From positions 8,050 through 72,049 of IMG/VR virus record IMGVR_UViG_3300048930_000528: 64,000 bases of DNA; one strand, written 5' to 3'. The stretch comes from a virus. The translations under genes were made by a program, and so were the position numbers. Under the pieces are notes generated by a model that saw only the letters and a program-made list of their open reading frames with translations, searched no databases and was not told the origin of the DNA. Within the stretch, counting starts at the first letter, position 1. Every line of letters starts with the position of its first letter. Below, in pieces: positions 12,919 to 49,161 of this stretch.

Positions 12919-13159
12919 GGTCCTTGTTTTTACCTAATCAAATGCGCCGTCAAGGTTAACTGCTCTTTACTGTTCCTCGTTTTGCCTCGCCTCTCAAATT
13001 ATCCACAGGCGGGGTGTTACAGTCTTTTGCTCTAGTTCTTTCCTAAATCGCTGCTGCTACGAGGCTAGCTTAATAAGCGTGTCCTTCTTAGGTTGACAGA
13101 TTTGTACCATTTTGCACCCTTTTGCTTGTTCCTTCCTGTGCAGGGAACAGTTCCCGACG
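12919..13159. promoter_or_regulatory. AT-rich divergent intergenic region; candidate attP
   Basis: Adjacent to integrase; 10-bp-period repeats TTTGTACCAT/TTTGCACCCT/TTTGCTTGTT (13101-13130); TTATCCACA at 12999-13007; TTGACA at 13093. Confidence 0.45.
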
Positions 13160-14233
13160 ATGCCTCGCCAGCTGACACTCAAGCCGAAGTTCACTCCGTC
13201 CCACCCGTCGGCGCCGTGGCGCGTGTACTTCCGCGGCAAGAGCTACTGGTTCAAGAACGAGGCCGACGCTGTGGCGAAGGCGAAGGATCTGCGTGGCGGC
13301 AAGTCGGACCTGACGCTGCGCGAGAGCGACGAGTATCGCTACGCGCGCCAGCTCCTCGGCCGGGTGCCACTGCTTGAGGCGGTCCGGTTCTACCTCGAGC
13401 GGAACCCTACCACCGATCCTACCATGACCGTCGGTGAGGCGATCACGGCGCACCTGGCGCGGGCGACCGGCAGGCCGGACTACATGGAGAAAAAGCGATA
13501 CTTCCTCGGGATTGTCTCTGAGCGGCTGGGCAACGAGAAGCTGGCCGTTGTCGGACCGGCAAGCGTGCAGGCGCTGATCGACTCGATGACGTCGAAGTGG
13601 GGGGCCAACGACGTGCTGAGGCACGCGCGCATTTTCTTCCGCGACTGCATTCGCCTCAAACTCCTCCGCGAAGATCCGACCGCGGCGTTTCAGGAGCAGA
13701 AGGTTCTGCCGAGCAAAGTCATTCTCACCGTCGAAGACACGGCGCACATCCTGAAGGTCTGCAAGGCACAGTTCCCGGAGATCCTGCCGGCAGTGGCGCT
13801 GCAACTCTTCACAGGAATCCGCACGAGTGAAGTGACCCGGTTGGAGTGGAAGGACGTGCGACTCGGCTCGCTGGTGAACATCGAGCCCCAGGTGGCGAAG
13901 ACGAGCGAGCGGCGCGTGATAGACTGGTGGCCGGAGGCGCTGACGCACTGGATGCCGGCCAAGGCAGGCGAGGGGCCTGTGACGGTTCAGCCCAAGAGCT
14001 ACGAGGCGCACAAGTGGCAGCTCATCATGGTCTGCAAGGCGTCGAAGTCCGACTTCAAGTTTGGGCAGAACGCCTTCCGCCACAGCTTCGCCAGCTTCGG
14101 GTGTGCCTACTTCCAGAACGCCGGCAAGGTCGCGCTCCTCATGGGGCACCGCGACGTGAACATGCTGTTCCGCCACTACCGCGACTACCGCACGAAGGAA
14201 GAGGCCGACCGGTACTTTGGCCTACGGCCGTAG
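13160..14233 (+). CDS. int: Phage integrase (tyrosine recombinase)
   Basis: TGIRTSE (Arg), AKT (Lys), FRHSFAS, LMGH, catalytic Tyr in RHY. Confidence 0.9.
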   Translation: MPRQLTLKPKFTPSHPSAPWRVYFRGKSYWFKNEADAVAKAKDLRGGKSDLTLRESDEYRYARQLLGRVPLLEAVRFYLERNPTTDPTMTVGEAITAHLARATGRPDYMEKKRYFLGIVSERLGNEKLAVVGPASVQALIDSMTSKWGANDVLRHARIFFRDCIRLKLLREDPTAAFQEQKVLPSKVILTVEDTAHILKVCKAQFPEILPAVALQLFTGIRTSEVTRLEWKDVRLGSLVNIEPQVAKTSERRVIDWWPEALTHWMPAKAGEGPVTVQPKSYEAHKWQLIMVCKASKSDFKFGQNAFRHSFASFGCAYFQNAGKVALLMGHRDVNMLFRHYRDYRTKEEADRYFGLRP

Positions 14234-28940: not shown

Positions 28941-29125
28941 AAGTCACTGCCATAAGTCACTGCCACGTCTCGCGGAGCGCACCGCCCGGAAAGACGGCAC
29001 TGCCAAAATCCCTATATATAAAAATACGTAGTATTTTTATAGGGAGTTTTGGCAGTACTGTCTTTCGGGTGCGCGGGTTGCACTTTTGGCAGTACCTTTT
29101 GGCAGTTTTGGCAGTATTGGCAGTA
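28941..29125. repeat. Iteron-like (TT)TTGGCAGT repeats and long inverted repeat; candidate replication origin
   Basis: AAGTCACTGCCA x2 (28941, 28954), CACTGCCAAAA (28998), TTTTGGCAGT at 29047, 29084, 29097, 29106, TTGGCAGTA at 29117; ~45-50 bp imperfect arms 28977-29074 around an AT-rich centre. Confidence 0.7.
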
Positions 29126-35968: not shown

Positions 35969-36622
35969 ATGGAAACTAAACGATACGAATCCATGCCCGG
36001 AAATCACATCTCGACCGCCTGCAAAGAGGCCGTGGAGATGGCTCGTCGCGACTCCTGCAATGTGGAGTTCGACTTCAACGAGATCACACTCACCGCCAAG
36101 CCCGACACCGATCCCGCCGCGCTCGCGCAATCCTACTCCGACGAGTGCGAGCGCCGCCACCGCGCCTACACCGCATCGCCTGAATACAAGGCGCGGCAGG
36201 AGGAAGCCGAGCGGAAGGAGCGCGAACGCAAGGCCAAGGTGGATGCCGTGCTCGCCGACGCCCCCGCAAACATGACGCTGCGCGATCCCGAAGGATGGAA
36301 GAAGGCGTGCGACGCAAACCAAGACCCATACGGCGGCGCGGTGATGACCTACGCCGAACGCTGGGCGCGAATGATGGAAGCTCGCATGGCGAAGGGCGAA
36401 CGCATCGCGGACATCGCGGAGGAGTGCTCACACCTCGCCAATGAAGAGGGCATCACCGGCTTCATGTATGGCGCCGCCGTCATGACCCTGTCCTCAGTCT
36501 GGATCCACGGTGAGGCGCTGCGCTTGTGGCACAACCTCAAGTACCAACTCCGCGACGAAGGTAAGCGCGCCAACGACAACGGCGGCGTGCTCAATCCGGC
36601 TGTCCTGCGGATGGGTGAATAG
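35969..36622 (+). CDS. Conserved phage hypothetical protein
   Basis: DPYG...YAERWA..ME, EGITGFMYGAAV..L...W.HGE.LR.WHN. Confidence 0.65.
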   Translation: METKRYESMPGNHISTACKEAVEMARRDSCNVEFDFNEITLTAKPDTDPAALAQSYSDECERRHRAYTASPEYKARQEEAERKERERKAKVDAVLADAPANMTLRDPEGWKKACDANQDPYGGAVMTYAERWARMMEARMAKGERIADIAEECSHLANEEGITGFMYGAAVMTLSSVWIHGEALRLWHNLKYQLRDEGKRANDNGGVLNPAVLRMGE

Positions 36623-36841: not shown

Positions 36842-36924
36842 AGCGCATGCGCCGTTGGGCGAGCCGAGCGCAACGAGGTATTACCCGCGGCGTTCGCCGC
36901 AACGTTTGGAAGGAACCACTGCCT

Positions 36925-37431: not shown

Positions 37432-37796
37432 ACACCACCACCCAACCACCCAAGACCAAGCCGACCCGCATGGATGCACAGGAGGTCATGGACAGCATCG
37501 CCACCCAGCTTCCCGAGATCCTTGGCCACATCCACGCCGACGGCGACTGGCTGTGGTACACAGGCCCGTCGCTCCAGTCCTCGCCAGCCACCCGTCTGGT
37601 GCTCAAGGACATCGGCTTCCGGTTCGCGCCCCGCGGCCACGTCATGCCTGAAGGCAACGGCATCGGATCGTGGGGCCACTCGTGCCTCCGGCCCACGCCG
37701 CGCCGCCGCAAAGGCGACCGCCGTGCGGCCACTGCCGACACGCCCGAAGCCCATGCCGTCGATCCCACGGCGGCACTCGCTGCCCTCTTTGCGTAA
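37428..37796 (+). CDS. Hypothetical protein
   Basis: GDWLWYTG...LKDIGFRFA; ATGA coupling. Confidence 0.55.
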   Translation: MNTTTQPPKTKPTRMDAQEVMDSIATQLPEILGHIHADGDWLWYTGPSLQSSPATRLVLKDIGFRFAPRGHVMPEGNGIGSWGHSCLRPTPRRRKGDRRAATADTPEAHAVDPTAALAALFA

Positions 37797-37835
37797 CCCA
37801 CGAAACGAACTGACAGCCTCAACCTTTCCATCATC

Positions 37836-38429
37836 ATGAGTACCATGCCCGCACCCGACATTGCCGCGGTCTTTACCGCCGCCCAAGCCAAGCTCCTCCA
37901 CCTCGCCGTCGGCCTGCGTGACCGCGAGCCGCTCGCCATGCAGCGTATAAACGCTTTCGTCCTCAACAAGACCGGCGCCAAGTTCAACGAGTACCTCACC
38001 GGCCCGACGCCCGTCGTCGAGAAGCTCGCCGTCGTGCAGGAAATCACCGCCATCGTTGAGTCCGGCGACCTAAGCAAGCTGCCCTCGGCGCCCAACGGCC
38101 AAGCCTCGGCCCCGCCGACTGCGCCTCGCACCACCCCGCCGCCGGCCCCGCCCAAGGTCGAGCAGCCCAAGCAGCCCGAGGTCAAGCAGCCCGAGCCGCC
38201 TCCGGCCCCGCCCGCCCCGCCTGCCGTCGACGTGGACGACCTCGCTGACGACGACATCGACGCCGACGAACTGGCCGGCGCCATCCAGACCATCGTCAAG
38301 GTGGCGGCCAAGCGCAAGGAACCCGCCGCCCCGCCGGCCCCGGCCTTCACCGAAGCTGACGTGCGCCGCATCATCCGGCACGAACTGGCCGATGCCATGG
38401 AGAAGATCGCCAAGGCGCTGCGTGCGTAA
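37836..38429 (+). CDS. Pro-rich hypothetical protein; its stop codon forms the left core of cassette array 1
   Basis: 197 aa; ends GCG-TAA-C. Confidence 0.6.
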   Translation: MSTMPAPDIAAVFTAAQAKLLHLAVGLRDREPLAMQRINAFVLNKTGAKFNEYLTGPTPVVEKLAVVQEITAIVESGDLSKLPSAPNGQASAPPTAPRTTPPPAPPKVEQPKQPEVKQPEPPPAPPAPPAVDVDDLADDDIDADELAGAIQTIVKVAAKRKEPAAPPAPAFTEADVRRIIRHELADAMEKIAKALRA

Positions 38430-38492
38430 CACCGGCAGTCTGCCACCGGAGGGGCGAAGCCCCGCAGGTTGGCAGTGATGCCTTGGTTCGAC
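38424..38492 (-). repeat. attC-like site Z
   Basis: - strand: GTCGAAC CAAGG CATCACTG ... CAGACTG CCGGT GTTACGC. Confidence 0.75.
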
Positions 38493-38804
38493 CTTCTTTT
38501 TATGAGCTTCGAATACCTGACAACATCCCTCGAAAAAACTCACGCGGCAGCCCGTGACATGGTCTATCGCGCGACCTTCTTACTCGCGAAACGCGATGAC
38601 GGAGTGACGGCCTGCGCTCGCCTGCCGCGCCGAAACTCCCGCAAGCTGGAAATAGGCTACTGCCTCGGCACGGGTCGAATGACTCATTGGGTCGAAACCG
38701 GCATCCTACCGACCGAACATCCCGGCGCGCTCGAATACTGGGTGAAGAAGGCGTTCTTCTACGCGGACGGACACATAGCGTGTGAGAAAAGGAAAAGCGC
38801 ATGA
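38478..38804 (+). CDS. Cassette ORF, hypothetical
   Basis: ATG 38478 in TGATG inside site Z (alternative ATG 38502). Confidence 0.5.
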   Translation: MPWFDLLFMSFEYLTTSLEKTHAAARDMVYRATFLLAKRDDGVTACARLPRRNSRKLEIGYCLGTGRMTHWVETGILPTEHPGALEYWVKKAFFYADGHIACEKRKSA

Positions 38805-39019
38805 GCTACGAAAACACTCAGTGCGTCTGCGGTGGGCGAAAGCTGACCGACACCATGCTGTGCGCCGACTGCGAGAAAGCAGTCGAAGGTACCTTCGACC
38901 GCCGCGAGATGGAAAATCCCGCAGCGACATGGGAGCAGCGGCGCAATGCGGCGATTCGCTGCCTCGCGGTCGCCCGCCGTCGCAACCCAAGCCTACCGCT
39001 TACCTATGCGTGCCGATAG
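38801..39019 (+). CDS. Cassette ORF, small Zn-binding protein
   Basis: C.CGG.K....LC..C; ATGA coupling. Confidence 0.55.
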   Translation: MSYENTQCVCGGRKLTDTMLCADCEKAVEGTFDRREMENPAATWEQRRNAAIRCLAVARRRNPSLPLTYACR

Positions 39020-39118
39020 GTCGAACGCACAAGCTGACCTATGACCACCGCGCCCATGACTACCGAATCCACAACAGACGCCGACGCGGTGGGCATTAAG
39101 TCCAGCGCCTTGTTCGGC
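39020..39118 (-). repeat. attC-like site A
   Basis: - strand: GCCGAAC AAGGC GCTGGACT ... GGTCAGC TTGTGC GTTCGAC. Confidence 0.88.
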
Positions 39119-39676
39119 GTGATTTACGCGGACCCGCCGTGGCGGTATGGCTTCTCTCAATCGGACTCACGCGCCATCGAGTCGCAATATCCGACAATGA
39201 CCGACGAGGAAATCTGTGCTATCAAGGTGCCTGCTGCCAAGGATGCCGTGCTCTACCTGTGGGCGGTGGCTCCACGGCTCGCCGCAGGGCTGCGCGTCAT
39301 GGAAGCGTGGGGATTCGACTACAAGACTTGTGCTGTGTGGGACAAAGAAAAGGTGGGCATGGGCTACTGGTGGCGCGGACAGCATGAAATCCTCATGGTC
39401 GGAACTCGCGGGAAGTTCTCGCCGCCTCCGCAAGCACTCCGCAAGTCGAGCGTGATTCGCTGCCCGCGTGGACGGCACAGCGCGAAGCCTGACCAAGTGC
39501 GCGACTGGATCGGGGAATGGTATCCCGACGTGCCCAAGCTGGAAATGTTCTCTCGGCTAAAACGACCGGGCTGGGAGGTCTTTGGAAATCAGGTCGAGTA
39601 TGACCTGCTAAGCGGGGATTTTTCTTCGCCGAACGTCGCGGGTCAGACACGACCCGCCGAAAACTCCAACCTGTAA
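39041..39676 (+). CDS. MT-A70-family adenine methyltransferase (cassette-borne)
   Basis: IYADPPW, YPTM, LYLW, AWGF.YKT..VW.K, HSAKP, LEMFSR..GW.VFGNQ. Confidence 0.9.
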   Translation: MTTAPMTTESTTDADAVGIKSSALFGVIYADPPWRYGFSQSDSRAIESQYPTMTDEEICAIKVPAAKDAVLYLWAVAPRLAAGLRVMEAWGFDYKTCAVWDKEKVGMGYWWRGQHEILMVGTRGKFSPPPQALRKSSVIRCPRGRHSAKPDQVRDWIGEWYPDVPKLEMFSRLKRPGWEVFGNQVEYDLLSGDFSSPNVAGQTRPAENSNL

Positions 39677-39758
39677 CTCCCATGAAAAACCAAAATCCAA
39701 CTGTAGTCTCTAGCCCGCAGGATCAGTGCGGGTCGTTGTCTGGGAACGCTGGTTCGGC
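39628..39758 (-). repeat. attC-like site B
   Basis: - strand: GCCGAAC CAGCG TTCCCAGA CAACGACCCGC ... GCGGGTCGTG TCTGACC CGCGAC GTTCGGC. Confidence 0.88.
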
Positions 39759-39966
39759 TGCCTTTGCTTTTCCAGTGGGCTCCCGCGTGAAGATCATAGC
39801 CGCCGACCCAGAGTGCCCCGCCGACTTTATCGGCTCCGAAGGGACAGTGGTGAGAATCGCCCCAGCGGATGAAAACTGCTCAGACGATATGTATTCGGTG
39901 CGCACGGATAGCGGTAAGCAAGACGGATTCTTTTCAGATGAGCTGATTTCTTTGCCGAACCAGTGA
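39682..39966 (+). CDS. Cassette ORF, SH3/KOW-like small protein
   Basis: FPVGSRVKI...G.EGTV....Y.V..D.G...F..DEL; starts inside site B. Confidence 0.6.
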   Translation: MKNQNPTVVSSPQDQCGSLSGNAGSAAFAFPVGSRVKIIAADPECPADFIGSEGTVVRIAPADENCSDDMYSVRTDSGKQDGFFSDELISLPNQ

Positions 39967-39980
39967 TTGTGCCACGTGCG
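39954..39980 (-). other. Terminal simple site C (attI/attG-like)
   Basis: Core GCCGAAC without a partner arm, followed by CAGTGATTGTGCCACGTGC. Confidence 0.6.
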
Positions 39981-40039
39981 TCCGCATGGACTTGCGTAAC
40001 TCAATATAAACCAACTCAAACCCAAACCACCCGTGCGAC

Positions 40040-43000
40040 ATGATTAAAGACCAACGATCCGGCATCTCTGCGGAGAACCTCCAAGAGATCATCGAGGCCG
40101 GCGTCAGCGCAGCGCACTCGCTCCAGGGCGGAGCGCAGCAGTACAGCACGCCTCAGTGGCTGGCCAACGCCTGCCGCCAGCTGATCACGGACGCCCGGCC
40201 TTCGTGCGTCCTTGATCCCCAAGGTGCGGCAGGCAACCTCGTCAATGCCCTGCCCGATGGCGTCACCCGCTACGTCACGGACATCGACAACCGCATGGGC
40301 GAGGACGATGCCTCGCACCTCATCAAGCGCATCAAGGGCAACTGCGTCTACATCTTCGAGCTGTTCGATGAACTGTACCCGCACGTTCAGTTCCCGTGCA
40401 TCGTCGCCAATCCACCCTTCGGCATCCGCTGGAAGCAGGCCGACGGCACCACAATCGACAGCACTCAGTGGACGTGGGACCTCATCAAGAAACGCCTGAC
40501 CATTGGCGGCTGCGGTTTCCTGATCTCCAACGCCAACACTCTTGAGCGCCTCGGCATCACCGCGGACCCGTGGGTCTACATCGTGCAGCGCTTCCCGGCC
40601 GGCGGCATCTGGCCCGACTGCAACGTTGAGCTTGGCATCGTGCACTTTGCCAACAGCGCGTCCAATATCCTGCCGCGAAAGCAGGTTGTGACCTGGGACC
40701 GTGTACCCACGGCGAGCGACATCATCCGCCGCCTGTCTGGCGACGTTGCCAATGCGCCGTACCGTCGGGCGACGTACGCCAACCCATTCACCGAGTTTGA
40801 GGTGGTGTCCAAAATCATTTCCGAGGAGGCGAAGAACCGGCCCCAGTTCAACATCTACCTCGACAAGAATGGCATGCTGCGGACCTACCTCAGCCTGCGC
40901 CATCACCACAAGTTCAAGGAGGACGACGTCAAGAAGCTGTTCCGCGTGAACAACTGCCACCCACTATCCCTCACCACGGAGCGCGACACGCGGAAGCTCA
41001 TGTTCGAGCTGGCCAACGCCGGCATCTACACTATCCAGCCCGAGGCCAAGGCCGCCATCGAGCAGGCGCTTGCCGAAGTCGCCAGCCTTGCCTGCCCAAT
41101 CCGCCCGGTCACCGACTTCGAACTGGTCGCCTACGCCGACGAAGAGGACACGCTTGTCGCCATCTCCGGCACGGTTGACGGCATCCACCTCACGCCCGGC
41201 AAGCGGTACGAAGTTGGCACTGGCACGTACACCTTCACGGATCGCTTCACCCGCAAGAAGATCCACTTCAACGAGGAGACCGAGGAGACCACGATCGACG
41301 AGCACGACTGCGAACTCTCCGGGCAAGATCGCTACGTGCAGATCACGGACGACCGAGGCATGCAGCACCGCTTCATGGAGCGACCCGAGACCGGCATCAA
41401 ATGGATGCACCCGGAGTCCATGCTTTGGACTTTGTTCAAGCGTCCCTTCGTTCCCACCGTTGGCGAAGTCATGGCTGATTGCGTGGCGACCAACCTCCAG
41501 AAGATGGCGTTCTCTGAGCTAGTCGCTGGCTTCACCTATTTCCCCGGCCAGCGTGACTACTATTCCCGCATGGCGTGCAAGGATTATGGGCTGGTGGCTG
41601 CGAGTACCGGATGCCATGCGAAAGGGACGCTAATCATGATGAGCGATGGCCGAAATAAAATCGTGGAAGACATCATTGTTGGTGATTGCGTGATGGGTTG
41701 GGACTCGACGCCGAGGCGGGTCACTCGCTTGGCTCAAGGGCGTCAGCAGATGGCCAAGATAATCCCCACTAAAGGAGATCCGTTCGTCGTCAACTTGGAC
41801 CATATTTTAACGCTGGTTAAGACCGGAACAAGTTCGTCGGTCGGCGGGGACGTAATTGACGTGAAGGTCAGAGATTACCTCGGATGGAAGCCATCGCAAA
41901 AGCATATTTATAAACTCTTCCGCAAGGAGATTAGCCTACAAGCAAAACCAATCGACTCCCTTTCGCCGTACTTCATGGGGGTTTACATTGGCGACGGGAC
42001 ATCGACGTCGTGGCAGGTTGCAATTACAAAGCCCGACAAGGAGGTTGAGGATGCTGTTGCCGATGAGTGCTCAAAGTGGGGATGGCGATACAGGACCGCG
42101 TTGCGGTCTGGGTCGGAAACGAATAAGACACACTTCATCCCAGGTCACGGCATAAAGCGAGAGCTTTATCAACATGGGCTTCTTGGAATACACTCAAGCA
42201 ATAGGTTTATTCCAGACGCTTACAAGTACAACAGCCGTGATGTGAGGCTTGAGGTTCTTGCTGGCATCATTGATAGCGACGGCCACCTTTGTGATGCCGG
42301 AACATTTGACTACATAAGCCAATCGCAATCTCTTGCCGATGATGTTGTGTGGTTGGCTAGATCAGTCGGGCTTGCCGCTTACGTGAAGCCATGCCAGAAG
42401 TATTGCCAGACCGGAGGCGGAGGCACGTATCATAGGGTTTCCATATCAGGCGAACTCTCTATCATTCCAACAAGAATCAAGCGCAAGCAAGCCGCGCAAC
42501 GCAGGCAGAAGAAAAGCGTCCTGCGAACAGGATTCAAAGTTGAGCTTCTGCCAGAGGATGACTACTACGGGTTCAGTATTGAAGGCGACGGGCGGTTCTT
42601 GCTTGGCGACTTTACAGTGACCCACAACACCGGCAAAACCCTGGGGGCTTTGACACTCATCAGCCTCAAGGCGCCGCGCCGTTCGCTCATCATCGCTCCG
42701 CAGGGAACGATGCGCTCGTCCGGCTCGGAGGAGGAGGTTGATTATCAGGCATCGCAGTGGGTGCAGGAGATCACGCGCTTCGCCCCGCTCGAGCCCGTGT
42801 TCCAGTTGTTCAGCATGCAGGATTACCTGTCCGTCCTGCACGCCAACGGCGGCGTGCTTCCGCCCGGCATCTACGTCACCTACCCGCAGGCTTACTTCTC
42901 CAACAGCGCCTTCGAGTCCTTGCCTGCCACATGGGAAAACCTCGACGCCTTCGAGACAGAGGAAAAGTTCTGCCGGCGCATGGGCCTGCCGTTCAGCAAG

Positions 43001-44371
43001 GATACTCCCGTGGAGCGCCACTACCACACTGGCGTTGGCTCGGCCAAGAACGGTATCCGGTGCGTGGCGACGCCGTCGCTGTCCACCGTCATCGCAACCA
43101 ACCATGGCGAGTGGGACATGGTTGTCTTGGACGAGGCGCACCTTTACCAGAGCCTTGAATCTTGCATCACGAACAACATGATCCGGCTTCAACCGCGGTT
43201 CAGGTTCGCACTCACTGCCACACCAATCAGCAACATCATCACGAACATATTCAGCCTCATGGGTTGGCTGTGCGTGAAGGACTGGTACAGGGGTGGGATG
43301 CGTAACGCCGCATGGCCCTATGCCGTGGACGAGGGGCATCGGTTTTCGACGACATTCCTTGCCACCGAGATCGACCGCACGGCGCAGCTCAAAGCCAAGA
43401 TGAAAGGCAAGAAGGGGTGGGGCAAGATCGGCATCAGGCCGTCGCCCGTCATCAGTTCCCCGGCTCGCCTGCTCAAGCTCCTCAAGCCGACGATGGCGTA
43501 CATCTCCAAAGAGGACTGCAACCCCAACCTCCAGCCGTGCACCGTGTCCGATGTCCGCGTGCCAATGGGTCGCGAGCAGGCCAAGCTCTATGCGTACTGG
43601 CTGGAGCGGGCCAACTACGTTCCCGAGTTCAAGAACCCGCTGACGATCGCCCAGGTTCAGATGTCCCGGCTGCGTGGCGTCTGTGCCTCGCCGGCCAGCC
43701 TCGACTACACCCGCGGCATGGCCCGGTCCAACTTCAACCCGAAGACCGTCACCATCCTTCAACTCATCCGTGACTGCCTCCGCAAGGGCGAGCAGGTGGT
43801 TGTCGTCTCGGCTCGTGTTGGCCAGTCAAACGAGTTGGCGCGTCGCCTTTCCGAGGCCGGAGTCCAGATCGCACGCATCGACTCGACCGTGCCGGCGGAG
43901 ATGCACACGGCTGAGGCCAACAGGTTCAAGCGTGGCGACGCCCGCGTCATGCTCATGGGCATCAAGTGCGCACAGGGTCACTCGTTTGACCGATGCCCCA
44001 ACCTCATCGTTGGCTCGCTCGAGTGGTCCTACGGCACGCTCGACCAGGCGAAGGGCCGGGTGTGGCGCCTGACCTCGCCTCAGCCCGTCAAGGTGTGGAT
44101 CGTCCTTCACCAGAACACGATTGAGGAGCTCCTGTTCGACCGGGTTGCGCTCAAGCAGGACGCCGCCACGCTGTGCCTTCACGGCAAGCGGGTGCCGCGT
44201 GACTTCAAGACGCTTGACCCGAGCGAGGTGCTGGCCGAGCACATCGTTGACTTCGACCACGAAGGCGAGACGCGGTCCGAATCCGAGTGCGAAACGCAGT
44301 GGCCCGACCTGCGCAAGCAGCTCGTCCTCGCCAACAACAGCGGCATCCCGGCCGGCTTCGCCGCGGCCTGA
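40040..44371 (+). CDS. DarB-like N6-methyltransferase/SNF2 helicase fusion containing an intein
   Basis: STPQWLA, VLDPQGAAGNL, IVANPPFG; ASTG|TGKT, VLDEAH, LTATP, QAKGRVWR. Confidence 0.85.
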   Translation: MIKDQRSGISAENLQEIIEAGVSAAHSLQGGAQQYSTPQWLANACRQLITDARPSCVLDPQGAAGNLVNALPDGVTRYVTDIDNRMGEDDASHLIKRIKGNCVYIFELFDELYPHVQFPCIVANPPFGIRWKQADGTTIDSTQWTWDLIKKRLTIGGCGFLISNANTLERLGITADPWVYIVQRFPAGGIWPDCNVELGIVHFANSASNILPRKQVVTWDRVPTASDIIRRLSGDVANAPYRRATYANPFTEFEVVSKIISEEAKNRPQFNIYLDKNGMLRTYLSLRHHHKFKEDDVKKLFRVNNCHPLSLTTERDTRKLMFELANAGIYTIQPEAKAAIEQALAEVASLACPIRPVTDFELVAYADEEDTLVAISGTVDGIHLTPGKRYEVGTGTYTFTDRFTRKKIHFNEETEETTIDEHDCELSGQDRYVQITDDRGMQHRFMERPETGIKWMHPESMLWTLFKRPFVPTVGEVMADCVATNLQKMAFSELVAGFTYFPGQRDYYSRMACKDYGLVAASTGCHAKGTLIMMSDGRNKIVEDIIVGDCVMGWDSTPRRVTRLAQGRQQMAKIIPTKGDPFVVNLDHILTLVKTGTSSSVGGDVIDVKVRDYLGWKPSQKHIYKLFRKEISLQAKPIDSLSPYFMGVYIGDGTSTSWQVAITKPDKEVEDAVADECSKWGWRYRTALRSGSETNKTHFIPGHGIKRELYQHGLLGIHSSNRFIPDAYKYNSRDVRLEVLAGIIDSDGHLCDAGTFDYISQSQSLADDVVWLARSVGLAAYVKPCQKYCQTGGGGTYHRVSISGELSIIPTRIKRKQAAQRRQKKSVLRTGFKVELLPEDDYYGFSIEGDGRFLLGDFTVTHNTGKTLGALTLISLKAPRRSLIIAPQGTMRSSGSEEEVDYQASQWVQEITRFAPLEPVFQLFSMQDYLSVLHANGGVLPPGIYVTYPQAYFSNSAFESLPATWENLDAFETEEKFCRRMGLPFSKDTPVERHYHTGVGSAKNGIRCVATPSLSTVIATNHGEWDMVVLDEAHLYQSLESCITNNMIRLQPRFRFALTATPISNIITNIFSLMGWLCVKDWYRGGMRNAAWPYAVDEGHRFSTTFLATEIDRTAQLKAKMKGKKGWGKIGIRPSPVISSPARLLKLLKPTMAYISKEDCNPNLQPCTVSDVRVPMGREQAKLYAYWLERANYVPEFKNPLTIAQVQMSRLRGVCASPASLDYTRGMARSNFNPKTVTILQLIRDCLRKGEQVVVVSARVGQSNELARRLSEAGVQIARIDSTVPAEMHTAEANRFKRGDARVMLMGIKCAQGHSFDRCPNLIVGSLEWSYGTLDQAKGRVWRLTSPQPVKVWIVLHQNTIEELLFDRVALKQDAATLCLHGKRVPRDFKTLDPSEVLAEHIVDFDHEGETRSESECETQWPDLRKQLVLANNSGIPAGFAAA
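41612..42628 (+). mobile_element. Intein with LAGLIDADG homing endonuclease (339 aa)
   Basis: Starts CHAKGT, ends VTHN before Thr+1; MGVYIGDG and LAGIIDSDG; lower GC than flanks. Confidence 0.95.
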
Positions 44372-44375
44372 CACC

Positions 44376-44576
44376 ATGAGCAACGACTTCGAGAAGGTGG
44401 AGCTTCACGGCGGTCCGCTTGACGGGCTTGAGTTGTTTGCCAGCGAATCGTTCAAGCTGGAGGAACTCGATCCCGAGACTGGGCTCATCCACGTCTACGT
44501 GAGACGCGGCAGTGGCGTCTTCCAGTACGCCGGCCACCAGCCATCCGGCCTGCCTCCGGCGCTGGGCGGAAGCTGA
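44376..44576 (+). CDS. Small hypothetical protein (GGPLDG motif)
   Basis: VELHGGPLDG...HVY. Confidence 0.55.
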   Translation: MSNDFEKVELHGGPLDGLELFASESFKLEELDPETGLIHVYVRRGSGVFQYAGHQPSGLPPALGGS

Positions 44577-44577
44577 T

Positions 44578-44607
44578 TTGACATTGCCAAATCGCCGGAT
44601 GTAACCT
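44578..44607 (+). promoter_or_regulatory. Sigma70-type promoter for the recombinase and cassette array 2
   Basis: TTGACA (44578-83), 18-bp spacer, TAACCT (44602-07), 11 bp before ATG 44619. Confidence 0.65.
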
Positions 44608-44618
44608 CGGATTCCAGC

Positions 44619-45620
44619 ATGCCCACGACAAAGAAAGCCGCAGGACTCAAGATCAAGGCGATGGACTCCACCAAGGTGACGCCGGCGGCGATCCGCGCAG
44701 CCAAGAAGATCCTTCGGGCCGCCGAAGAGTCGGGCATGCAGGATGCAATCCTCGCTGCGCTCATGCAGCGGAAGACCGTACCCGTGAAGCAGGCCTTGGC
44801 CGAGTGGCACCTATGGCGGAAGGCGAACTCGTCAGCGTCCACGCTCCGCACCAACCGGCTGGCACTAGATCAGTTCTTCGATGGGCTCGAGGCCGCAAAC
44901 TGGCCGGTGTCAAAAATCACGATCCAGCACATTGACGCATGGGTTAACAAAGACGACGCCTGCAAGCGGGCCACCCGCGAGGCAAAGCTCGCCGCCATCC
45001 GATCGTTCTACAAGTTCGTCACCGCGAATGCCTATTGCCAGACCAACCCGGCGCAGCTGGTGCATGTTCGCATTCGCGACATGACGCACGCTCAGCTGGA
45101 GCGCACCGTGCGCGAGCCCATCACCGAGCACGAGTACCGGCATATCATGGCCAACACCGAAGGCTTTTGGAAATGGGCAACGGCGATCAGCTACTGGGCG
45201 GGGCTGCGCATGAGCGACGTGTTCGCACTCCAGTGGGCTCAGATCATGCCCACCGAGATCGTAGCCTGGGCGAAAAAAGACGGCGACCGGCTAGTGCTTC
45301 CACTCAACCACCCGCTCATCGGCGGAGGGGAGTTGGTGCCTGTGCTGTTCGAGGTATTGAGTAATCGCCAAGACGATACATACTGCTTCCCCGATCAGCA
45401 TCGCGAGATGGCCGACATCGAGAAGCGTTCCAAGTTCTCGGTCTACTATACACGCCTGCTTGCCGGGCTAGGCATTGAAGGCAAGAGCTTCCATTCGCTG
45501 CGGCATGCGTTTGCCACCCGGCTCGCCAACGCAGGGGTGACACCTGAGCAGATCGGGCGGTGGATGGGGCACAGTTCGACGCGCATCACCGAGGGGTACA
45601 TCCACCGCGGCAAGCGATGA
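44619..45620 (+). CDS. Second tyrosine recombinase (XerC/D-like architecture, no IntI insertion)
   Basis: SAM-like N-domain (AAIRSFYKF...NP), AGLRMSD, HSLRHAFAT, MGHSS, catalytic Tyr in EGY. Confidence 0.9.
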   Translation: MPTTKKAAGLKIKAMDSTKVTPAAIRAAKKILRAAEESGMQDAILAALMQRKTVPVKQALAEWHLWRKANSSASTLRTNRLALDQFFDGLEAANWPVSKITIQHIDAWVNKDDACKRATREAKLAAIRSFYKFVTANAYCQTNPAQLVHVRIRDMTHAQLERTVREPITEHEYRHIMANTEGFWKWATAISYWAGLRMSDVFALQWAQIMPTEIVAWAKKDGDRLVLPLNHPLIGGGELVPVLFEVLSNRQDDTYCFPDQHREMADIEKRSKFSVYYTRLLAGLGIEGKSFHSLRHAFATRLANAGVTPEQIGRWMGHSSTRITEGYIHRGKR

Positions 45621-45660
45621 TCGGTAAACCATCATCAATCATCGAATCCCTGATCGTCCA

Positions 45661-45882
45661 ATGAGTAACCCACAGAACGAACTGACGCCGTCCGCTGGCC
45701 CGAATTGCGCTGTGGCGTCTGGTTCGCCTCCGGGGCTCTACAACCTATACGTCCGCCACACCGATGGGCGCACAAAGAAACTGACGGGCTACGCGATGAC
45801 ACATCACGAGTGCTGCGTGATGAAGAGCAAACTAAGCGAATGGACGCAGGCTCGCACACTGCTCGTAAAGGAGACGAAATGA
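45661..45882 (+). CDS. Cassette ORF, hypothetical
   Basis: Reads through half-site D. Confidence 0.5.
   Translation: MSNPQNELTPSAGPNCAVASGSPPGLYNLYVRHTDGRTKKLTGYAMTHHECCVMKSKLSEWTQARTLLVKETK
45690..45728 (-). repeat. attC-like half-site D (partner arm missing)
   Basis: - strand GGCGAAC CAGAC GCCACAGC GCAA; core GTTCGCC matches GGCGAAC at 46064. Confidence 0.65.
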
Positions 45883-46139
45883 AACACGACCCAGACCACT
45901 ACCTCACGCAGCCGATGGACAATCAGGAGGCGGCGCACAATCGCCGCGTGGCCGTGACGGCCGAGAACGTCGCCGCGTGTGCGCAAGCCATCCGCGACCT
46001 CGACCGCATCACGCCGCGCCCGCTCACCGCCGAAGACCAAGCGCGTGCCGTGCTCACGTTCTTGGCGAACACCAAGGTGACCGATGCGCAGCCCAAGGCG
46101 AACGACGCCGGACCGGGTAGCAATGCGCATTCGGTCTAG
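45879..46139 (+). CDS. Cassette ORF, hypothetical
   Basis: AAGGAG RBS; stop inside site E. Confidence 0.55.
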   Translation: MKHDPDHYLTQPMDNQEAAHNRRVAVTAENVAACAQAIRDLDRITPRPLTAEDQARAVLTFLANTKVTDAQPKANDAGPGSNAHSV

Positions 46140-46152
46140 CGAATGGTTCAGC
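46064..46152 (-). repeat. attC-like site E
   Basis: - strand: GCTGAAC CATTC GCTAGACC GAATGCGCA ... TGCGCATC GGTCACC TTGGT GTTCGCC. Confidence 0.88.
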
Positions 46153-46160
46153 CCTCTTTT

Positions 46161-46433
46161 ATGCCCTCACCAATCGAAAGAATGATCGACGCCGCGACCG
46201 GCTACACGCCGCCGCCAGCGCCGAAGAAACGCACGCTCCCGACTGCCGAAGAAAAGCAGATAGCGACCGATGCCGGAAACGACGTCATCTGGTATATCGA
46301 CGCGCAGTATCCCGCGATGTGGGACGGCGTGCCGAAGTCAGCGCGGACCAGCGTGAAAAACGCCGTCTACAACCGCGTGATCTTAATCTTGCTGAACGCC
46401 AAGATCAGCAACGCGGGGACGAAAACAGAATGA
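46161..46433 (+). CDS. Cassette ORF, hypothetical
   Basis: MPSPIERMIDAA (alternative ATG 46143); stop inside site F. Confidence 0.55.
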   Translation: MPSPIERMIDAATGYTPPPAPKKRTLPTAEEKQIATDAGNDVIWYIDAQYPAMWDGVPKSARTSVKNAVYNRVILILLNAKISNAGTKTE

Positions 46434-46520
46434 CTCTATGAGCACGAAAATCGAAGACAAACCCATAGCGAGCGCCGGAGCGGACAGCTCCCCGCGTTGC
46501 GCTGTATCGCCTGGTTCGAC
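46391..46520 (-). repeat. attC-like site F
   Basis: - strand: GTCGAAC CAGGC GATACAGC GCAACGCGGGGA ... TCCCCGCGTT GCTGATC TTGGC GTTCAGC. Confidence 0.92.
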
Positions 46521-46722
46521 GATTGAAACGACCGAACGCAAGGTGATGGTCGCGCTCTGCGGACTGTGCATCGCCGTCTTCTGCGCGGCTCTTCTCGGCA
46601 TCGCTTTCTACGTGCATGTCGTCGCCGGGCTATTCGCTCTCGCGCTCATCGCGTGGTGGCTCGGCTCATCGATGGCCGAAGTGCTCAAGGAAACTCGCGA
46701 GCGTGATTCGTCGAACGACTAG
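46438..46722 (+). CDS. Cassette ORF, two-TM membrane protein
   Basis: Two hydrophobic helices; starts in site F, stops in site G. Confidence 0.6.
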   Translation: MSTKIEDKPIASAGADSSPRCAVSPGSTIETTERKVMVALCGLCIAVFCAALLGIAFYVHVVAGLFALALIAWWLGSSMAEVLKETRERDSSND

Positions 46723-46805
46723 GTATGCCAGCCCTACCCGCCATCGATGTTGATTCGCCAGTAACTGCCCGCCGGGTAGGGATTGGCATGACCGACTTGT
46801 TCGGG
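46710..46805 (-). repeat. attC-like site G
   Basis: - strand: CCCGAAC AAGTC GGTCATGC CAATCCCTACCCG ... CGGGTAGGGCTG GCATACC TAGTC GTTCGAC. Confidence 0.92.
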
Positions 46806-47282
46806 GTTGTGGACGTGGTGCCGAGTGACATCGTGCTGACCCCGGAACCAATCGCGCAAGCCGTGGTGGAACGCTTCAAACCATCTGGCCGCGTGCTCGA
46901 TCCGTGCAAGGGAGATGGTGCCTTCCTGAAGTTCATGCCTGGTGCTGAGTGGTGCGAGATTCGCGAAGGCCGATGCTTCTACGACTGGAAAGAGCCGGTG
47001 GACTGGATCGTCTCGAATCCACCTTACAGCGTCTTCTCGGACTTCCTTCGGCACAGCTTCACGGTGGCGGAAAACATCGTCTATCTGATCCCCGTCAACA
47101 AGGCGTTCAACTCTGACAAGATGATGCGCGAAATCTGGTCATGGGGAGGCGTGAAAACCATCTTCGTGATTGGCTCCGGTGGATCGCTGAACTTCCCAAT
47201 CGGCTTCTGCATAGGAGCTGTTCACTTCGTGCGCGGCTATCGGGGCGGCGCGAATGTGGAATTTTATACCCCGAACACCTAG
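46725..47282 (+). CDS. Small DNA adenine methyltransferase (cassette-borne)
   Basis: LTPE.IA, VLDPCKGDGAF, WIVSNPPYS. Confidence 0.85.
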   Translation: MPALPAIDVDSPVTARRVGIGMTDLFGVVDVVPSDIVLTPEPIAQAVVERFKPSGRVLDPCKGDGAFLKFMPGAEWCEIREGRCFYDWKEPVDWIVSNPPYSVFSDFLRHSFTVAENIVYLIPVNKAFNSDKMMREIWSWGGVKTIFVIGSGGSLNFPIGFCIGAVHFVRGYRGGANVEFYTPNT

Positions 47283-47363
47283 CTCAGACATGGCTGGCTC
47301 TCCCTCAACTCTCGAACACTTGGCGGCCCCGCGCCAGCCATTGTCTGTGGCGTCTGGTTCGCT
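47270..47363 (-). repeat. attC-like site H
   Basis: - strand: AGCGAAC CAGAC GCCACAGA CAATGGCTGGC ... GCCAGCCATG TCTGAGC TAGGT GTTCGGG. Confidence 0.92.
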
Positions 47364-48081
47364 GCTTCTTTGGAACGCGGACTGCATAGAAGTGCTGCCA
47401 CAAATCACGGCGGCGGCGGTTATCACCGATCCGCCCTATGGCATCAACGATGCAGCTTTCGATTCGGGGCCACGCGAAGGAAAACGCAAGGGAGGCGATA
47501 ATACTTGGCATCCGGCAAGCGATTGGGATGCGGAGATAAAGCCGGAATGGTGCGCTGCGGTATGCGCTGCCGCGCCGGTGGTCGCATGGATGGGCCACTG
47601 GAGAAAACGCGGCATGGTAGAGGCAGCGATGCCCCACAAACTGCGCGCGGAAATAGTGTGGGCAAAAGACTGCCATGTAGGCCCGCCATGTCCGGTGGCA
47701 ATGCAGGATGAGCGCGTGTGGCTATTCTCGCGCGAAGGCATCACGGCTAAGCGATTTGACACGACCGTGTGGAGCGTTCCGATAATCCCGACGTGGGCAC
47801 ATAAGCACCACAAAAACGAGAAGCCGGTCGCGCTGATGGCGCGAGCGATCTACCTGCTGACATCCGAAGGTGATACCGTGCTCGATCCATTCATGGGGAG
47901 CGGCACGACGGCAATCGCGTGCATCCGGACGGGCCGCAAATTCATCGGGGTGGAGCGCGACCCCGCGCACTTCCAAACGGCAGTCGAGCGCATCCGCCGA
48001 GAACTGGCACAGGGCGACCTGTTTTTGCCAGCGAACACTGAGGTCAGAGAATCGCGCCCTGACCCGACCAAACAACCCTGA
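47290..48081 (+). CDS. Beta-class N4/N6 DNA methyltransferase (cassette-borne)
   Basis: ITDPPYG, HKNEKPV.LM, VLDPFMGSGTT. Confidence 0.9.
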   Translation: MAGSPSTLEHLAAPRQPLSVASGSLLLWNADCIEVLPQITAAAVITDPPYGINDAAFDSGPREGKRKGGDNTWHPASDWDAEIKPEWCAAVCAAAPVVAWMGHWRKRGMVEAAMPHKLRAEIVWAKDCHVGPPCPVAMQDERVWLFSREGITAKRFDTTVWSVPIIPTWAHKHHKNEKPVALMARAIYLLTSEGDTVLDPFMGSGTTAIACIRTGRKFIGVERDPAHFQTAVERIRRELAQGDLFLPANTEVRESRPDPTKQP

Positions 48082-48138
48082 ACCTTCAACGAACAATCAG
48101 AGCGGCTGCACGCGATTCTCTGCACCGTCTGGTTGGGA
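48030..48138 (-). repeat. attC-like site I
   Basis: - strand: TCCCAAC CAGAC GGTGCAGA GAATCGCG ... CGCGATTC TCTGACC TCAGT GTTCGCT. Confidence 0.92.
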
Positions 48139-48147
48139 ATTTCCATC

Positions 48148-48408
48148 ATGGACCAAATACTAAAAGCACGATCTGCAATCGTCGCGGAACTCAAACGCCG
48201 CGCTCTGGAAAAAGACCCGAACGTAAGGCCACTGAATCCGGATGCCGCCCTTCGCTGGCACAAGCCGCAGGACAACTACTATTCGGGCGCTGGCGAAATG
48301 GCGTGCCCGATCTGCGAGGCAGGGAAACTGCGCTACAGCCGAAGCGGCTACAATGGGCATGTCCACGCGGGCTGCACAACGGAAGGGTGTGTGTCATGGA
48401 TGGAGTGA
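48148..48408 (+). CDS. Cassette ORF, Zn-ribbon protein
   Basis: CPIC..G.LRYS...NGHVHA.C.T.GC..WME. Confidence 0.65.
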   Translation: MDQILKARSAIVAELKRRALEKDPNVRPLNPDAALRWHKPQDNYYSGAGEMACPICEAGKLRYSRSGYNGHVHAGCTTEGCVSWME

Positions 48409-48418
48409 CCGCGACACT

Positions 48419-48531
48419 TCCCAACGAAAAAGGTGAGCCGCGCTCGCCGAAGAAAGGACAATGACATGAGCGGAGAAAAGACATCCGAAGACGTGACGGC
48501 TGCGAGCGTTGGCTCTACCGACGGGTTCGGC
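48419..48531 (-). repeat. attC-like site J
   Basis: - strand: GCCGAAC CCGTC GGTAGAGC CAACGCTCGC ... GCGAGCGCG GCTCACC TTTTTC GTTGGGA. Confidence 0.92.
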
Positions 48532-48789
48532 GATGGCTGCGACCACTGTGACACCTTCGGAGGGCAGAAGACCTACGCGAACCAAGCGTGCCTGCCGCTC
48601 AACGGTCGCGTCGTGTGCGTGGACTGGTGCATCCATCAAATCGTGGCGGCGCTCAACGCCGGCGGCGTGCGCACGACTGCGTGCTGCTGCGGTCATGGGC
48701 GAATGCCGGGCCGCATCGACCTTGAGGACGGCCGCATACTCACGATCTCTTCGCCGAACAAGGCGGATATGCCGACGTGCAGCAAATAA
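48466..48789 (+). CDS. Cassette ORF, Cys-rich protein
   Basis: VD.CI..IV.ALN.GG..T..CCCGHG; AAGGA RBS and ATG lie inside site J. Confidence 0.65.
   Translation: MSGEKTSEDVTAASVGSTDGFGDGCDHCDTFGGQKTYANQACLPLNGRVVCVDWCIHQIVAALNAGGVRTTACCCGHGRMPGRIDLEDGRILTISSPNKADMPTCSK
48753..48781 (-). other. Terminal simple site K (attI/attG-like)
   Basis: Core GCCGAAC without a partner arm, followed by AAGGCGGATATGCCGACGTGC, similar to site C. Confidence 0.6.
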
Positions 48790-48798
48790 GCGGAACTC

Positions 48799-49161
48799 AT
48801 GCAGGCCTTACTTCGTTACCCCAAACGTCAGCGCAGCGCCAAAGCCAGGGAGTGGGGTGCTCGTGGCAATGCGTCCCAAGCCGTCGCCAGGCTCACGCGA
48901 GACCTGCCATGGGAGACCATCGTAGCTCGCGCACGCGACGACGAACGCGGAAAGCTGACTCGCCATGGATGCACCTACTTCGGCGACGGCCGCATTGTGC
49001 ATTGGGAAATTCGCCGATCCATCGCCGGCCGCCACAACCAGTTCGATGTGATTGCCGACGGCATTCTCGTCCGAACCTATGGCCAGCGTCGTCTTCAGTC
49101 GTGGCTTAGGATGGTGCCACCTATCAAAGCCCCATCGCCTGCAGCGCAGCGCGCCGCCTGA
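48799..49161 (+). CDS. Hypothetical basic protein
   Basis: Last + ORF, converging with the giant - gene. Confidence 0.4.
   Translation: MQALLRYPKRQRSAKAREWGARGNASQAVARLTRDLPWETIVARARDDERGKLTRHGCTYFGDGRIVHWEIRRSIAGRHNQFDVIADGILVRTYGQRRLQSWLRMVPPIKAPSPAAQRAA

Follow-up and report, generated by a model that had tools for sequence, protein, structure and literature searches.

Integron-like arrays of attC sites with reversed gene cassettes in a phage genome without an integron integrase

Introduction

Integrons are regarded as a bacterial device, and a phage genome in which integron-like hairpins separate small genes raises the question of whether these hairpins are genuine attC sites, how the units between them are built and which enzyme might move them. 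Here, we address this question for a stretch of 64,000 nucleotides (the window) of the IMG/VR virus record IMGVR_UViG_3300048930_000528. The window comprises bases 8050-72049 of this 72,049-bp record, which has direct terminal repeats and is rated complete; it thus stems from a complete, terminally redundant phage genome of 72 kb. All positions are counted from the first base of the window.

A preliminary description, made from the sequence of the window, had proposed a phage-borne cassette system between 38424 and 48781. This interpretation is supported by the analyses below, with the qualification that phage-borne attC clusters as such have already been published (Qi et al. 2023, PMC9892861). 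The two clusters of the window are very probably arrays of genuine integron-type attC sites in an integrase-less phage genome, that is, a phage-borne cluster of attC sites lacking integron integrases (CALIN).

Results and discussion

Nine hairpins with the architecture of attC sites

The two arrays contain nine imperfect hairpins (Table 1), with three sites in 1.3 kb and six sites in 2.5 kb, and these hairpins together with three partial sites bound ten units. All nine were present, with their 7-nt cores, exactly where the preliminary description had placed them. When each hairpin was folded as DNA, its outer R boxes paired through CGAAC/GTTCG. Inward of them came an internal loop with 5 unpaired nt on each side and then a long stem interrupted by bulges, and fold energies ranged from -15 to -24 kcal/mol on either strand. 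The AAC and GTT triplets are invariant in 9/9 hairpins, which all show the palindromic order R''-L''...L'-R' of attC sites. Along the 3' arm of the + strand, an unpaired T is conserved and is followed by six bases in pairs and a further bulge; 2-3 more pairs then lead to the 5-nt spacer and GTT. The second extrahelical base is variable (C, G or T). This arm fits the geometry of a folded attC bottom strand, which Larouche and Roy (2011) give as T-N6-G/C extrahelical bases on one arm.

The conservation of this structure was analyzed in an alignment of eight hairpins (A3), for which the structure was written by hand and tested against 500 shuffles. The stem cells of A3 were paired in 85.1%, compared with 64.5 +/- 2.6% in the shuffles, none of which (0/500) reached the observed value, and pairing dropped to 29-43% when the partners were slid by 1-3 columns. 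Changes on both sides were found in 13/16 stem pairs, and the covariation score amounted to 0.515 versus 0.159 in the shuffles. The structure is kept while the sequence varies, as in integron attC sites.

Two covariance models were built, one from eight hairpins of the window (R1) and one from 17 phage hairpins only (R2), and hairpin 38424-38492 was left out of the training of both. This held-out hairpin received 15.2 bits with R1 (expect value, E, 0.065 over 64 kb) and 19.9 bits with R2 (E 0.0011 over 13 kb). Apart from the eight strong sites, the whole 72-kb genome gave no match at E <= 0.01. Since the - strand of the sites reached at most 17.9 bits with R1, the sites are asymmetric. Promoters or terminators were considered as a different identity of the hairpins and rejected, as neither type was enriched (promoter-like sites, 3 versus 2.9 expected; terminator-like sites, 12 versus 10.4 expected).

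The most telling property of the arrays lies in the ends of the units. These are perfect reverse complements in 10/10 units (70/70 positions), whereas the two cores of one hairpin match perfectly in 1/9 cases (46/63 positions), as had been pointed out in the preliminary description; only the right end of the third unit had to be corrected, to 39954-39960. When the right-hand cores were permuted, the observed sum was reached in 1/200,000 permutations (p about 5e-6). Matching unit ends are the signature of an origin from circular cassettes, and this signature was repeated in other viral contigs introduced below, namely in 11/11 units of the phage G003 and in 1/1 unit each of L043 and L046.

Recovery of known attC sites and reversed orientation of the cassettes

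Next, model R2 was applied to known integrons. On plasmid R46, which carries the class 1 integron In1, it matched 35999-36068, 36865-36924, 37731-37800 and 38061-38120 (E 3e-9 to 4e-7), so that all four cassette genes have one match each at their 3' ends (4/4 attC sites), and the next match had an E of 0.17. In the CALIN of Tetrasphaera phage TJE1, it found three sites at the ends of orf1-orf3 (E 3e-6, 0.01 and 0.11). A further 14 sites were found in G006, a Verrucomicrobiota metagenome-assembled genome with two IntI genes above the NCBIfam cut-off (384 and 366 bits); R2 sites lie 1-2 kb from these genes on the same contig, as a five-site array on contig C90 and as one site on contig C159. The attC architecture proposed for the window is thus borne out by the folds, by the T-N6-G geometry and by the recovery of the sites of R46, TJE1 and G006.

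The same matches allowed us to compare the orientation of sites and genes. The R2 matches lie opposite the gene strand in R46 (4/4) and TJE1 (3/3), and in G006 the longest open reading frame (ORF) is opposite the modelled strand in 6/7 intervals, the seventh holding a transposase-like ORF. The latter (369 aa, contig C90 27664-28773, locus L238) stands on the attC bottom strand and is probably an insertion sequence. For the phage family, 26 cassette intervals were available from eight contigs, comprising the window phage and seven other viral contigs, and the longest ORF lies on the modelled (bottom) strand in 22 of them. Because one and the same model hits the coding strand in the window and the opposite strand in R46 and TJE1, the reversed orientation holds, and the ORFs are antisense to the classical attC orientation as first proposed. 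The direction of the window genes is backed by matches to MT-A70, N6_N4_Mtase, phrog_799 and three more PHROGs as well as by third-position GC.

It is consequently the coding strand of the phage cassettes that takes the fold of an attC bottom strand. Cassette boundaries lie within the left cores, between AA and C (AA|C), so that a cassette opens with the C of its own left core and closes with the AA of the following one; its order is therefore attC first and gene second. Each attC holds the tail and the stop codon of the preceding gene. The gene of the cassette itself has its start codon in the attC loop and its first 15-25 codons in the 3' arm of the attC. A start codon was found within the upstream attC in 24/26 intervals, and where an ORF runs past the next left core, AAC is read in frame in 18/18 cases, with a stop codon 6-66 nt later; the MT-A70 gene, for example, has its last 14 codons inside the next attC. 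As the AAC at the crossover is in frame as Asn, any cassette order leaves every gene terminated.

TTCTT-like, pyrimidine-rich tracts stand before the left core and after the right core both in the phage arrays and in the bacterial array of L238 (G006 contig C90). On the bacterial top strand, such tracts would be purine-rich, ribosome-binding-like stretches.

Related phage contigs differ by whole cassettes

Between the two arrays lies the gene of a tyrosine recombinase (44619-45620), and its relatives as well as those of the neighbouring helicase and of the cassette proteins were searched for attC-type sites. Used as a single-protein query against viral contigs, the recombinase retrieved nothing, and its relatives in GenBank phages share no more than 26-30% identity with it. 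With 23 aligned homologues as bait, we obtained 114 loci (80 metagenome loci, L001-L080, and 34 viral loci, L081-L114). Hairpins are present in five of these (L043, L046 and L047 in the first set, L081 and L082 in the second), in every case co-oriented with the recombinase gene and no more than about 1 kb away, and L038 showed a marginal match (18.7 bits, E 0.12). No hairpin was found in nine helicase-relative loci (L126-L134). The cassette proteins as bait gave 88 further loci, among which the same sites flank the closest MT-A70 relatives, L143 (69%) and L144 (66%), and the N6/N4 methyltransferase relative L139 (40%); the other 85 had no site at E <= 0.01. The whole records behind L143, L144 and L139 contain 14, 4 and 4 model matches.

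The complete one among the cassette-baited records with arrays, G003, is a phage of 44.65 kb with 12 sites in a single array, which extends across the 99-bp terminal overlap. An isolated attC-type match of G003 (11612-11701, +, 37.3 bits) is located far from this array and on the other strand.

A comparison of relatives at the AA|C junction had been suggested in the preliminary description, and near-identical contigs indeed diverge exactly at the left AAC. From the GAAC of a short attC preceding the recombinase gene onwards, L082 and L043 share 93% identity over 808 nt, and their sequences to the left of this point are unrelated. Their left cores differ (GCCGAAC versus GCTGAAC), and in L043 the core matches the start of the left-hand unit. 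Similarly, L046 and L047 share 2,180 nt at 100% identity, which ends directly behind GCTGAA, 20 nt downstream of the recombinase stop codon. The MT-A70 cassettes of the window, L143 and L144 have the common ends GTTCGGC/GCCGAAC and lose similarity at AAC on both sides, and the attC upstream of the MT-A70 gene can be aligned between the window and L143. Because homology in the relatives breaks at the left AAC, the stem travels with the downstream gene and the crossover lies at the 5' core of the coding strand. IntI cuts an attC bottom strand at this same position.

Cassettes of the window also recur elsewhere, with the MT-A70 cassette being common to the phages G003 and G004 and the N6/N4 methyltransferase cassette to G003, G004 and G005. 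No relative of the window terminase was found in G003, G004 or G005, which are for this reason other phages. As far as the alignments go, whole cassettes thus vary among near-identical phages and recur in unrelated ones.

Homologous recombination between the repeats would be an alternative explanation for such differences. It has a model in the PeSLs (promoter/stem-loop elements) of Arbiol et al. (2010) and Comeau et al. (2014), which are reportedly promoter-terminator motifs exchanged by homologous recombination. In T4-type phages, PeSLs are repeated stem-loops among small accessory genes in variable regions, for which module shuffling was proposed (PMC2839356, PMC4122927). The window phage encodes RecT and an exonuclease, and the 3' arms share up to about 15 nt. 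However, homologous exchange explains neither the complementary unit ends nor breakpoints at one trinucleotide. Moreover, breakpoints were seen on the left of the hairpin, whereas the arms have their longest common stretch on the right. Promoter-like and terminator-like sites are not enriched, and in contrast to PeSLs the window has attC-type sites with junctions at one fixed trinucleotide. We therefore regard this explanation as highly improbable.

Alternatively, the arrays might be passive relics, that is, cassettes that came from a bacterial integron on a single occasion, have since become fixed and no longer recombine in phages. The genome without an integrase and the partial sites at the array ends would agree with this, and illegitimate capture is discussed as one route in the text of Qi et al. 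2023. The orientation, however, is opposite to that of bacterial arrays with the same attC flavour, and the cargo matches phage families. The attC-internal starts and the fixed AAC frame are consistent over 26 cassettes of 8 contigs, near-identical phages differ by whole cassettes at AAC, and the same cassette is found among different neighbours in unrelated phages. Passive relics thus appear unlikely, if somewhat less so than homologous recombination. The cassettes are built for a phage, with genes on the other strand, translation signals in the site, a fixed crossover frame and a cargo that, as originally stated, is phage-type by its Pfam and PHROG matches. Altogether, this suggests that phages run their own version of integron gene swapping.

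Which enzyme acts on the sites

At least two attC sites close together in a genome without IntI define a CALIN, and this is what the window phage has; no intI lies beside an array, as it would in a complete integron. The preliminary description was right in reporting no intI. Across the 72-kb genome, no match to the IntI model TIGR02249 exceeded its cut-off of 265 bits, the best ones reaching 21 bits as DNA and 31.9 bits on protein. It had, however, overlooked that a tyrosine recombinase of another kind is encoded between the arrays.

This recombinase and IntI (TIGR02249; VchIntIA, 2A3V) are both tyrosine recombinases with an N-terminal SAM-like and a catalytic domain. The recombinase accounts for the 31.9 bits mentioned, with only model positions 261-299 matching, and it reached about 60 bits with models of XerC/XerD. 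Its AlphaFold2 (AF2) model, with a predicted local distance difference test (pLDDT) score of 84.9, does not have the inserted helix of IntI, which would be expected between strands 213-228 and helix 239. A Foldseek search with the model placed lambda Int on top (1.3e-10) and IntI (2a3v) at rank 13 (7.3e-9), Tn1549 Int and XerA also outscoring 2a3v. An identity as IntI was ruled out by the low score, the missing helix and the structural preference for lambda Int. The protein is an ordinary, lambda Int/Xer-like tyrosine recombinase and an unproven candidate for the cassette recombinase.

If this candidate were the acting enzyme, the locus would be a self-contained phage analogue of an integron, in which the attC-type sites are the substrates of the recombinase. 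Primary insertion would then take place at the partial site following its gene or, in the relatives, at the short hairpin preceding it. Several observations point in this direction. The array begins within about 100 nt of the gene in 6/6 hairpin contigs found via the recombinase, either downstream (window, L046 and L047) or upstream (L082, L081 and L043). Both near-identical contig pairs differ exactly at the junction adjoining the recombinase gene, L046 and L047 share the arrangement despite a different backbone and a recombinase that is only 35% identical, and the order of array and recombinase on the folding strand of L082 mirrors the order array-attI-intI on G006 contig C90. On the other hand, the recombinase itself was the bait for those contigs, and the apparent link is inflated by the tendency of short metagenome contigs to end at variable junctions. 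About 100 other recombinase-relative loci and the 9 helicase-relative loci are without hairpins, and the protein lacks the features of IntI. Furthermore, 3/3 hairpin-bearing records obtained with the cassette proteins, one of them complete, have no tyrosine recombinase; in the complete G003, with its 12 arrayed sites, neither a PF00589 match at E <= 0.001 nor IntI was found. Since arrays occur in such records, we downgraded the self-contained explanation, which now seems doubtful to us, and we assume that the enzyme is usually supplied in trans.

We consider it rather likely that the window holds a phage CALIN with reversed cassettes that are recombined in trans, probably by a host integron integrase. 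Taken by itself, the identification of the enzyme in trans is made with more reserve: a host integron integrase would be the likeliest single candidate, and we name it tentatively. A concrete form of this candidate is an integrase of the Verrucomicrobiota type, because the attC sites beside IntI in G006 have the same unusual cores (GTTCGCC/GGCGAAC) as the window, because 16/151 sampled Verrucomicrobiota genomes gave R2 matches at E <= 1e-6 and because G006 was the only bacterial genome found to encode a relative of the recombinase, a distant one with 31% identity. GC content and attC flavour fit Verrucomicrobiota as host, this being the only phylum sampled.

By analogy with integrons, the coding strand of the phage DNA would fold as single-stranded DNA, and a tyrosine recombinase would cut between A and C of the 5' core. 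Cassettes would then exit as circles and re-enter at another attC. Their cargo, three DNA methyltransferases and small phage proteins, would be expressed from early or replication-gene transcripts of the phage, which would fit accessory and anti-restriction roles.

Several points weigh against this preferred explanation. The textbook core consensus of attC is RYYYAAC/GTTRRRY, from which most window cores depart by a G or C at the fourth position (GNCGAAC/GTTCGNC); the same deviation is present in the attC sites beside the true IntI of G006, and G003 has textbook-like cores such as GCCTAAC/GTTAGGC. In L082, 0/2 units have perfectly matching ends, each agreeing at 6/7 positions. Both arrays end in partial sites without a proper hairpin (45700-45728, 39954-40000 and 48753-48821). 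The link to Verrucomicrobiota consists of the one distant recombinase match. Finally, the host of TJE1 is an actinobacterium, and as integrons are not known in that group, a host IntI may not explain phage CALINs in general.

A wider scenario would combine both kinds of enzyme. Phages would keep their own pool of reversed cassettes circulating among unrelated lineages, with attC as a standard joint that provides the stop of one gene as well as ribosome entry, start codon and initial codons of the following one, and in part of this pool a non-IntI, lambda/Xer-like recombinase would act. We judge this scenario to be as doubtful as the self-contained one. If correct, it would provide the first enzyme outside the IntI family known to act on attC.

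Minor observations concern the surroundings of the recombinase gene. Inverted GTTAC...GTAAC repeats, about 8-12 nt apart, stand just before its start codon in the marine relatives L011 (6400-6440), L012 (4490-4525) and L014 (4770-4805), and a GTAAC likewise stands ahead of the gene in several contigs, among them the window, L081 and L082. These repeats are possibly the recombinase's own core site or an operator. Short boxes ending in AAC follow the stop codon of the gene in the window, L082 and L081, none of which is complementary to the core preceding the gene.

Comparison with known systems

The phage CALIN is already a known kind, as 17 CALINs were reported by Qi et al. 2023 from 10,705 phage genomes, along with 3 complete integrons and one In0. 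In that study, at least two attC sites were required per CALIN, five methyltransferase cassettes were found and 5/6 tested attC sites of virulent phages recombined with attI1 under IntI1; phage attC clusters are presented there as parts of bacterial arrays for which phages might serve as vehicles from host to host. The window phage and these CALINs have in common attC sites in a phage without IntI, small cassettes and DNA methyltransferases as cargo. The TJE1 CALIN has the gene first and then the attC on the opposite strand, called "the typical structure", whereas in the window the sites are on the coding strand and precede the genes. This contrast is drawn from TJE1, and some of the 17 CALINs may be reversed as well. 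The arrays are also larger, with 9 complete sites in the window and 12 in G003 compared with 3 in TJE1, the figured example, and the window family adds comparative evidence of exchange at the crossover point to what the article reports.

Bacterial integrons (In1 of R46 and G006) have in common with the window the attC architecture including T-N6-N bulges, the signature of circular cassettes and the crossover position on the folding strand, and the G006 sites additionally have window-like GTTCGNC/GNCGAAC cores. In contrast to bacterial integrons, the window has no IntI and no recognisable attI or cassette promoter (Pc), the replicon is a virus, the genes are on the attC bottom strand and translation starts inside the attC loop.

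We found no description of reversed phage cassettes with start codons in attC, in a search for which Qi et al. 2023 was the only literature on phage attC sites and which left out its supplements and most subscription journals. Apparently new are therefore the reversed build, an attC that serves as stop/start joint, the array size and the evidence for exchange at AAC between and within lineages.

If this holds true, part of the mosaicism of phage accessory regions would be due to a defined site-specific mechanism, and anti-restriction and anti-defence genes of phages could be mined via their flanking attC sites. For a genome without IntI, the identity of the enzyme acting on attC would become directly testable. 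A further prediction is that a bacterial integron capturing a reversed cassette would hold it antisense to Pc and thus silent.

Layout of the arrays and genomic context

The features of the window are listed in Table 1, in which cassettes are bounded by AA|C of one left core and AA|C of the next. The ends of the ten proposed units were confirmed except for the correction mentioned above. Of the half-site described up to 45728, the 3' stem arm and the right core are present and the 5' arm is not; L047 has a similar partial site after its recombinase gene. The site following the last unit (48753) turned out to be partial as well. Neither array is headed by a promoter-like site. The 7-mer GCGTAAC occurs as a direct repeat at both outer ends of array 1 (38424-38430 and 39994-40000) and may mark the site where this array was built in.

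Table 1 Features of the two arrays and of their genomic surroundings in the window.
Feature	Position	Strand	Remarks
Large terminase	9641-11410	-	PHROGs/Pfam
Integrase, tyrosine type	13112-14233		phrog_1, 4.5e-24
attC-type site 1	38424-38492	+	weakest of all nine sites; right core GTTCGAC; left core GCGTAAC overlapping the stop codon of backbone gene 37836-38429
Cassette 1	38430-39025	+	attC 1 and small ORFs 38469-38804 and 38801-39019 (no Pfam/PHROGs match); ends GTTCGAC/GTCGAAC
attC-type site 2	39020-39118	+	R1 89.1 bits, R2 81 bits; contains MT-A70 start codon (39041) and first 24 codons
Cassette 2	39026-39633	+	attC 2 and MT-A70 adenine methyltransferase 39041-39676 (Pfam MT-A70 2.2e-17); ends GTTCGGC/GCCGAAC
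attC-type site 3	39628-39758	+	R1 68.4 bits
Cassette 3	39634-39959	+	attC 3 and ORF 39682-39966, phrog_20295 (no function assigned in PHROGs)
Array 1 right end	39954-40000	+	left-type core GCCGAAC, then non-hairpin stretch ending GCGTAAC (39994-40000), just before helicase gene; no + strand model match
SNF2 helicase with intein	40040-44371	+	Pfam/PHROGs
Tyrosine recombinase, 333 aa	44619-45620	+	Pfam PF00589 9.6e-20, PF02899
Partial site heading array 2	45700-45728	+	3' stem arm, 5-nt spacer, right core GTTCGCC; no 5' arm; 8.3 bits
Unit 4	45722-46069	+	ORFs 45661-45882 and 45879-46139 (no family match); ends GTTCGCC/GGCGAAC
attC-type site 4	46064-46152	+	R1 67.6 bits
Cassette 5	46070-46396	+	attC 4 and ORF 46143-46433; ends GTTCAGC/GCTGAAC
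attC-type site 5	46391-46520	+	R1 74.8 bits
Cassette 6	46397-46715	+	attC 5 and ORF 46438-46722 (small hydrophobic protein)
attC-type site 6	46710-46805	+	R1 71.6 bits
Cassette 7	46716-47275	+	attC 6 and DNA methyltransferase-like gene 46725-47282 (phrog_799 DNA methyltransferase 5.1e-22)
attC-type site 7	47270-47363	+	R1 83.1 bits
Cassette 8	47276-48035	+	attC 7 and N6/N4 DNA methyltransferase 47290-48081 (Pfam N6_N4_Mtase 6.3e-25)
attC-type site 8	48030-48138	+	R1 67.9 bits; right core GTTGGGA
Cassette 9	48036-48424	+	attC 8 and zinc-ribbon-like ORF 48148-48408 (phrog_31210); ends GTTGGGA/TCCCAAC
attC-type site 9	48419-48531	+	R1 68.7 bits
Cassette 10	48425-48758	+	attC 9 and ORF 48466-48789 (phrog_12958)
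Array 2 right end	48753-48821	+	left-type core GCCGAAC without proper hairpin after it; 9.4 bits, on - strand
ORF of 2,940 aa	49124-57946	-	no PHROG match; adjoins the array region

On the + strand, the arrays are surrounded by co-oriented replication and accessory genes (PHROGs, Pfam), and the window encodes RecT, an exonuclease, a helicase-primase and methyltransferases by the same searches. The phage integrase at 13112-14233 suggests, by its sequence, a temperate life style. Among GenBank phages, neither a near-identical phage (megablast) nor a relative of the terminase (tblastn) was found. A tRNA scan of the window gave no hit, and no Rfam family was found at the gathering threshold or at E <= 5.

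Outside the arrays, a palindromic, AT-rich hairpin (28985-29070, GC 0.41) received about 12 bits on both strands with model R1 and is perhaps an origin or operator rather than an attC. The 2,940-aa ORF is kept in L082 (3,064 aa) and L081, where it directly follows the recombinase gene. The intein within the SNF2 helicase ORF is located at 41612-42628 (Pfam Hom_end_hint 5.7e-19, Hom_end 1e-4), and as tblastx alignments to L082 and L081 skip exactly this stretch, these relatives are without the intein.

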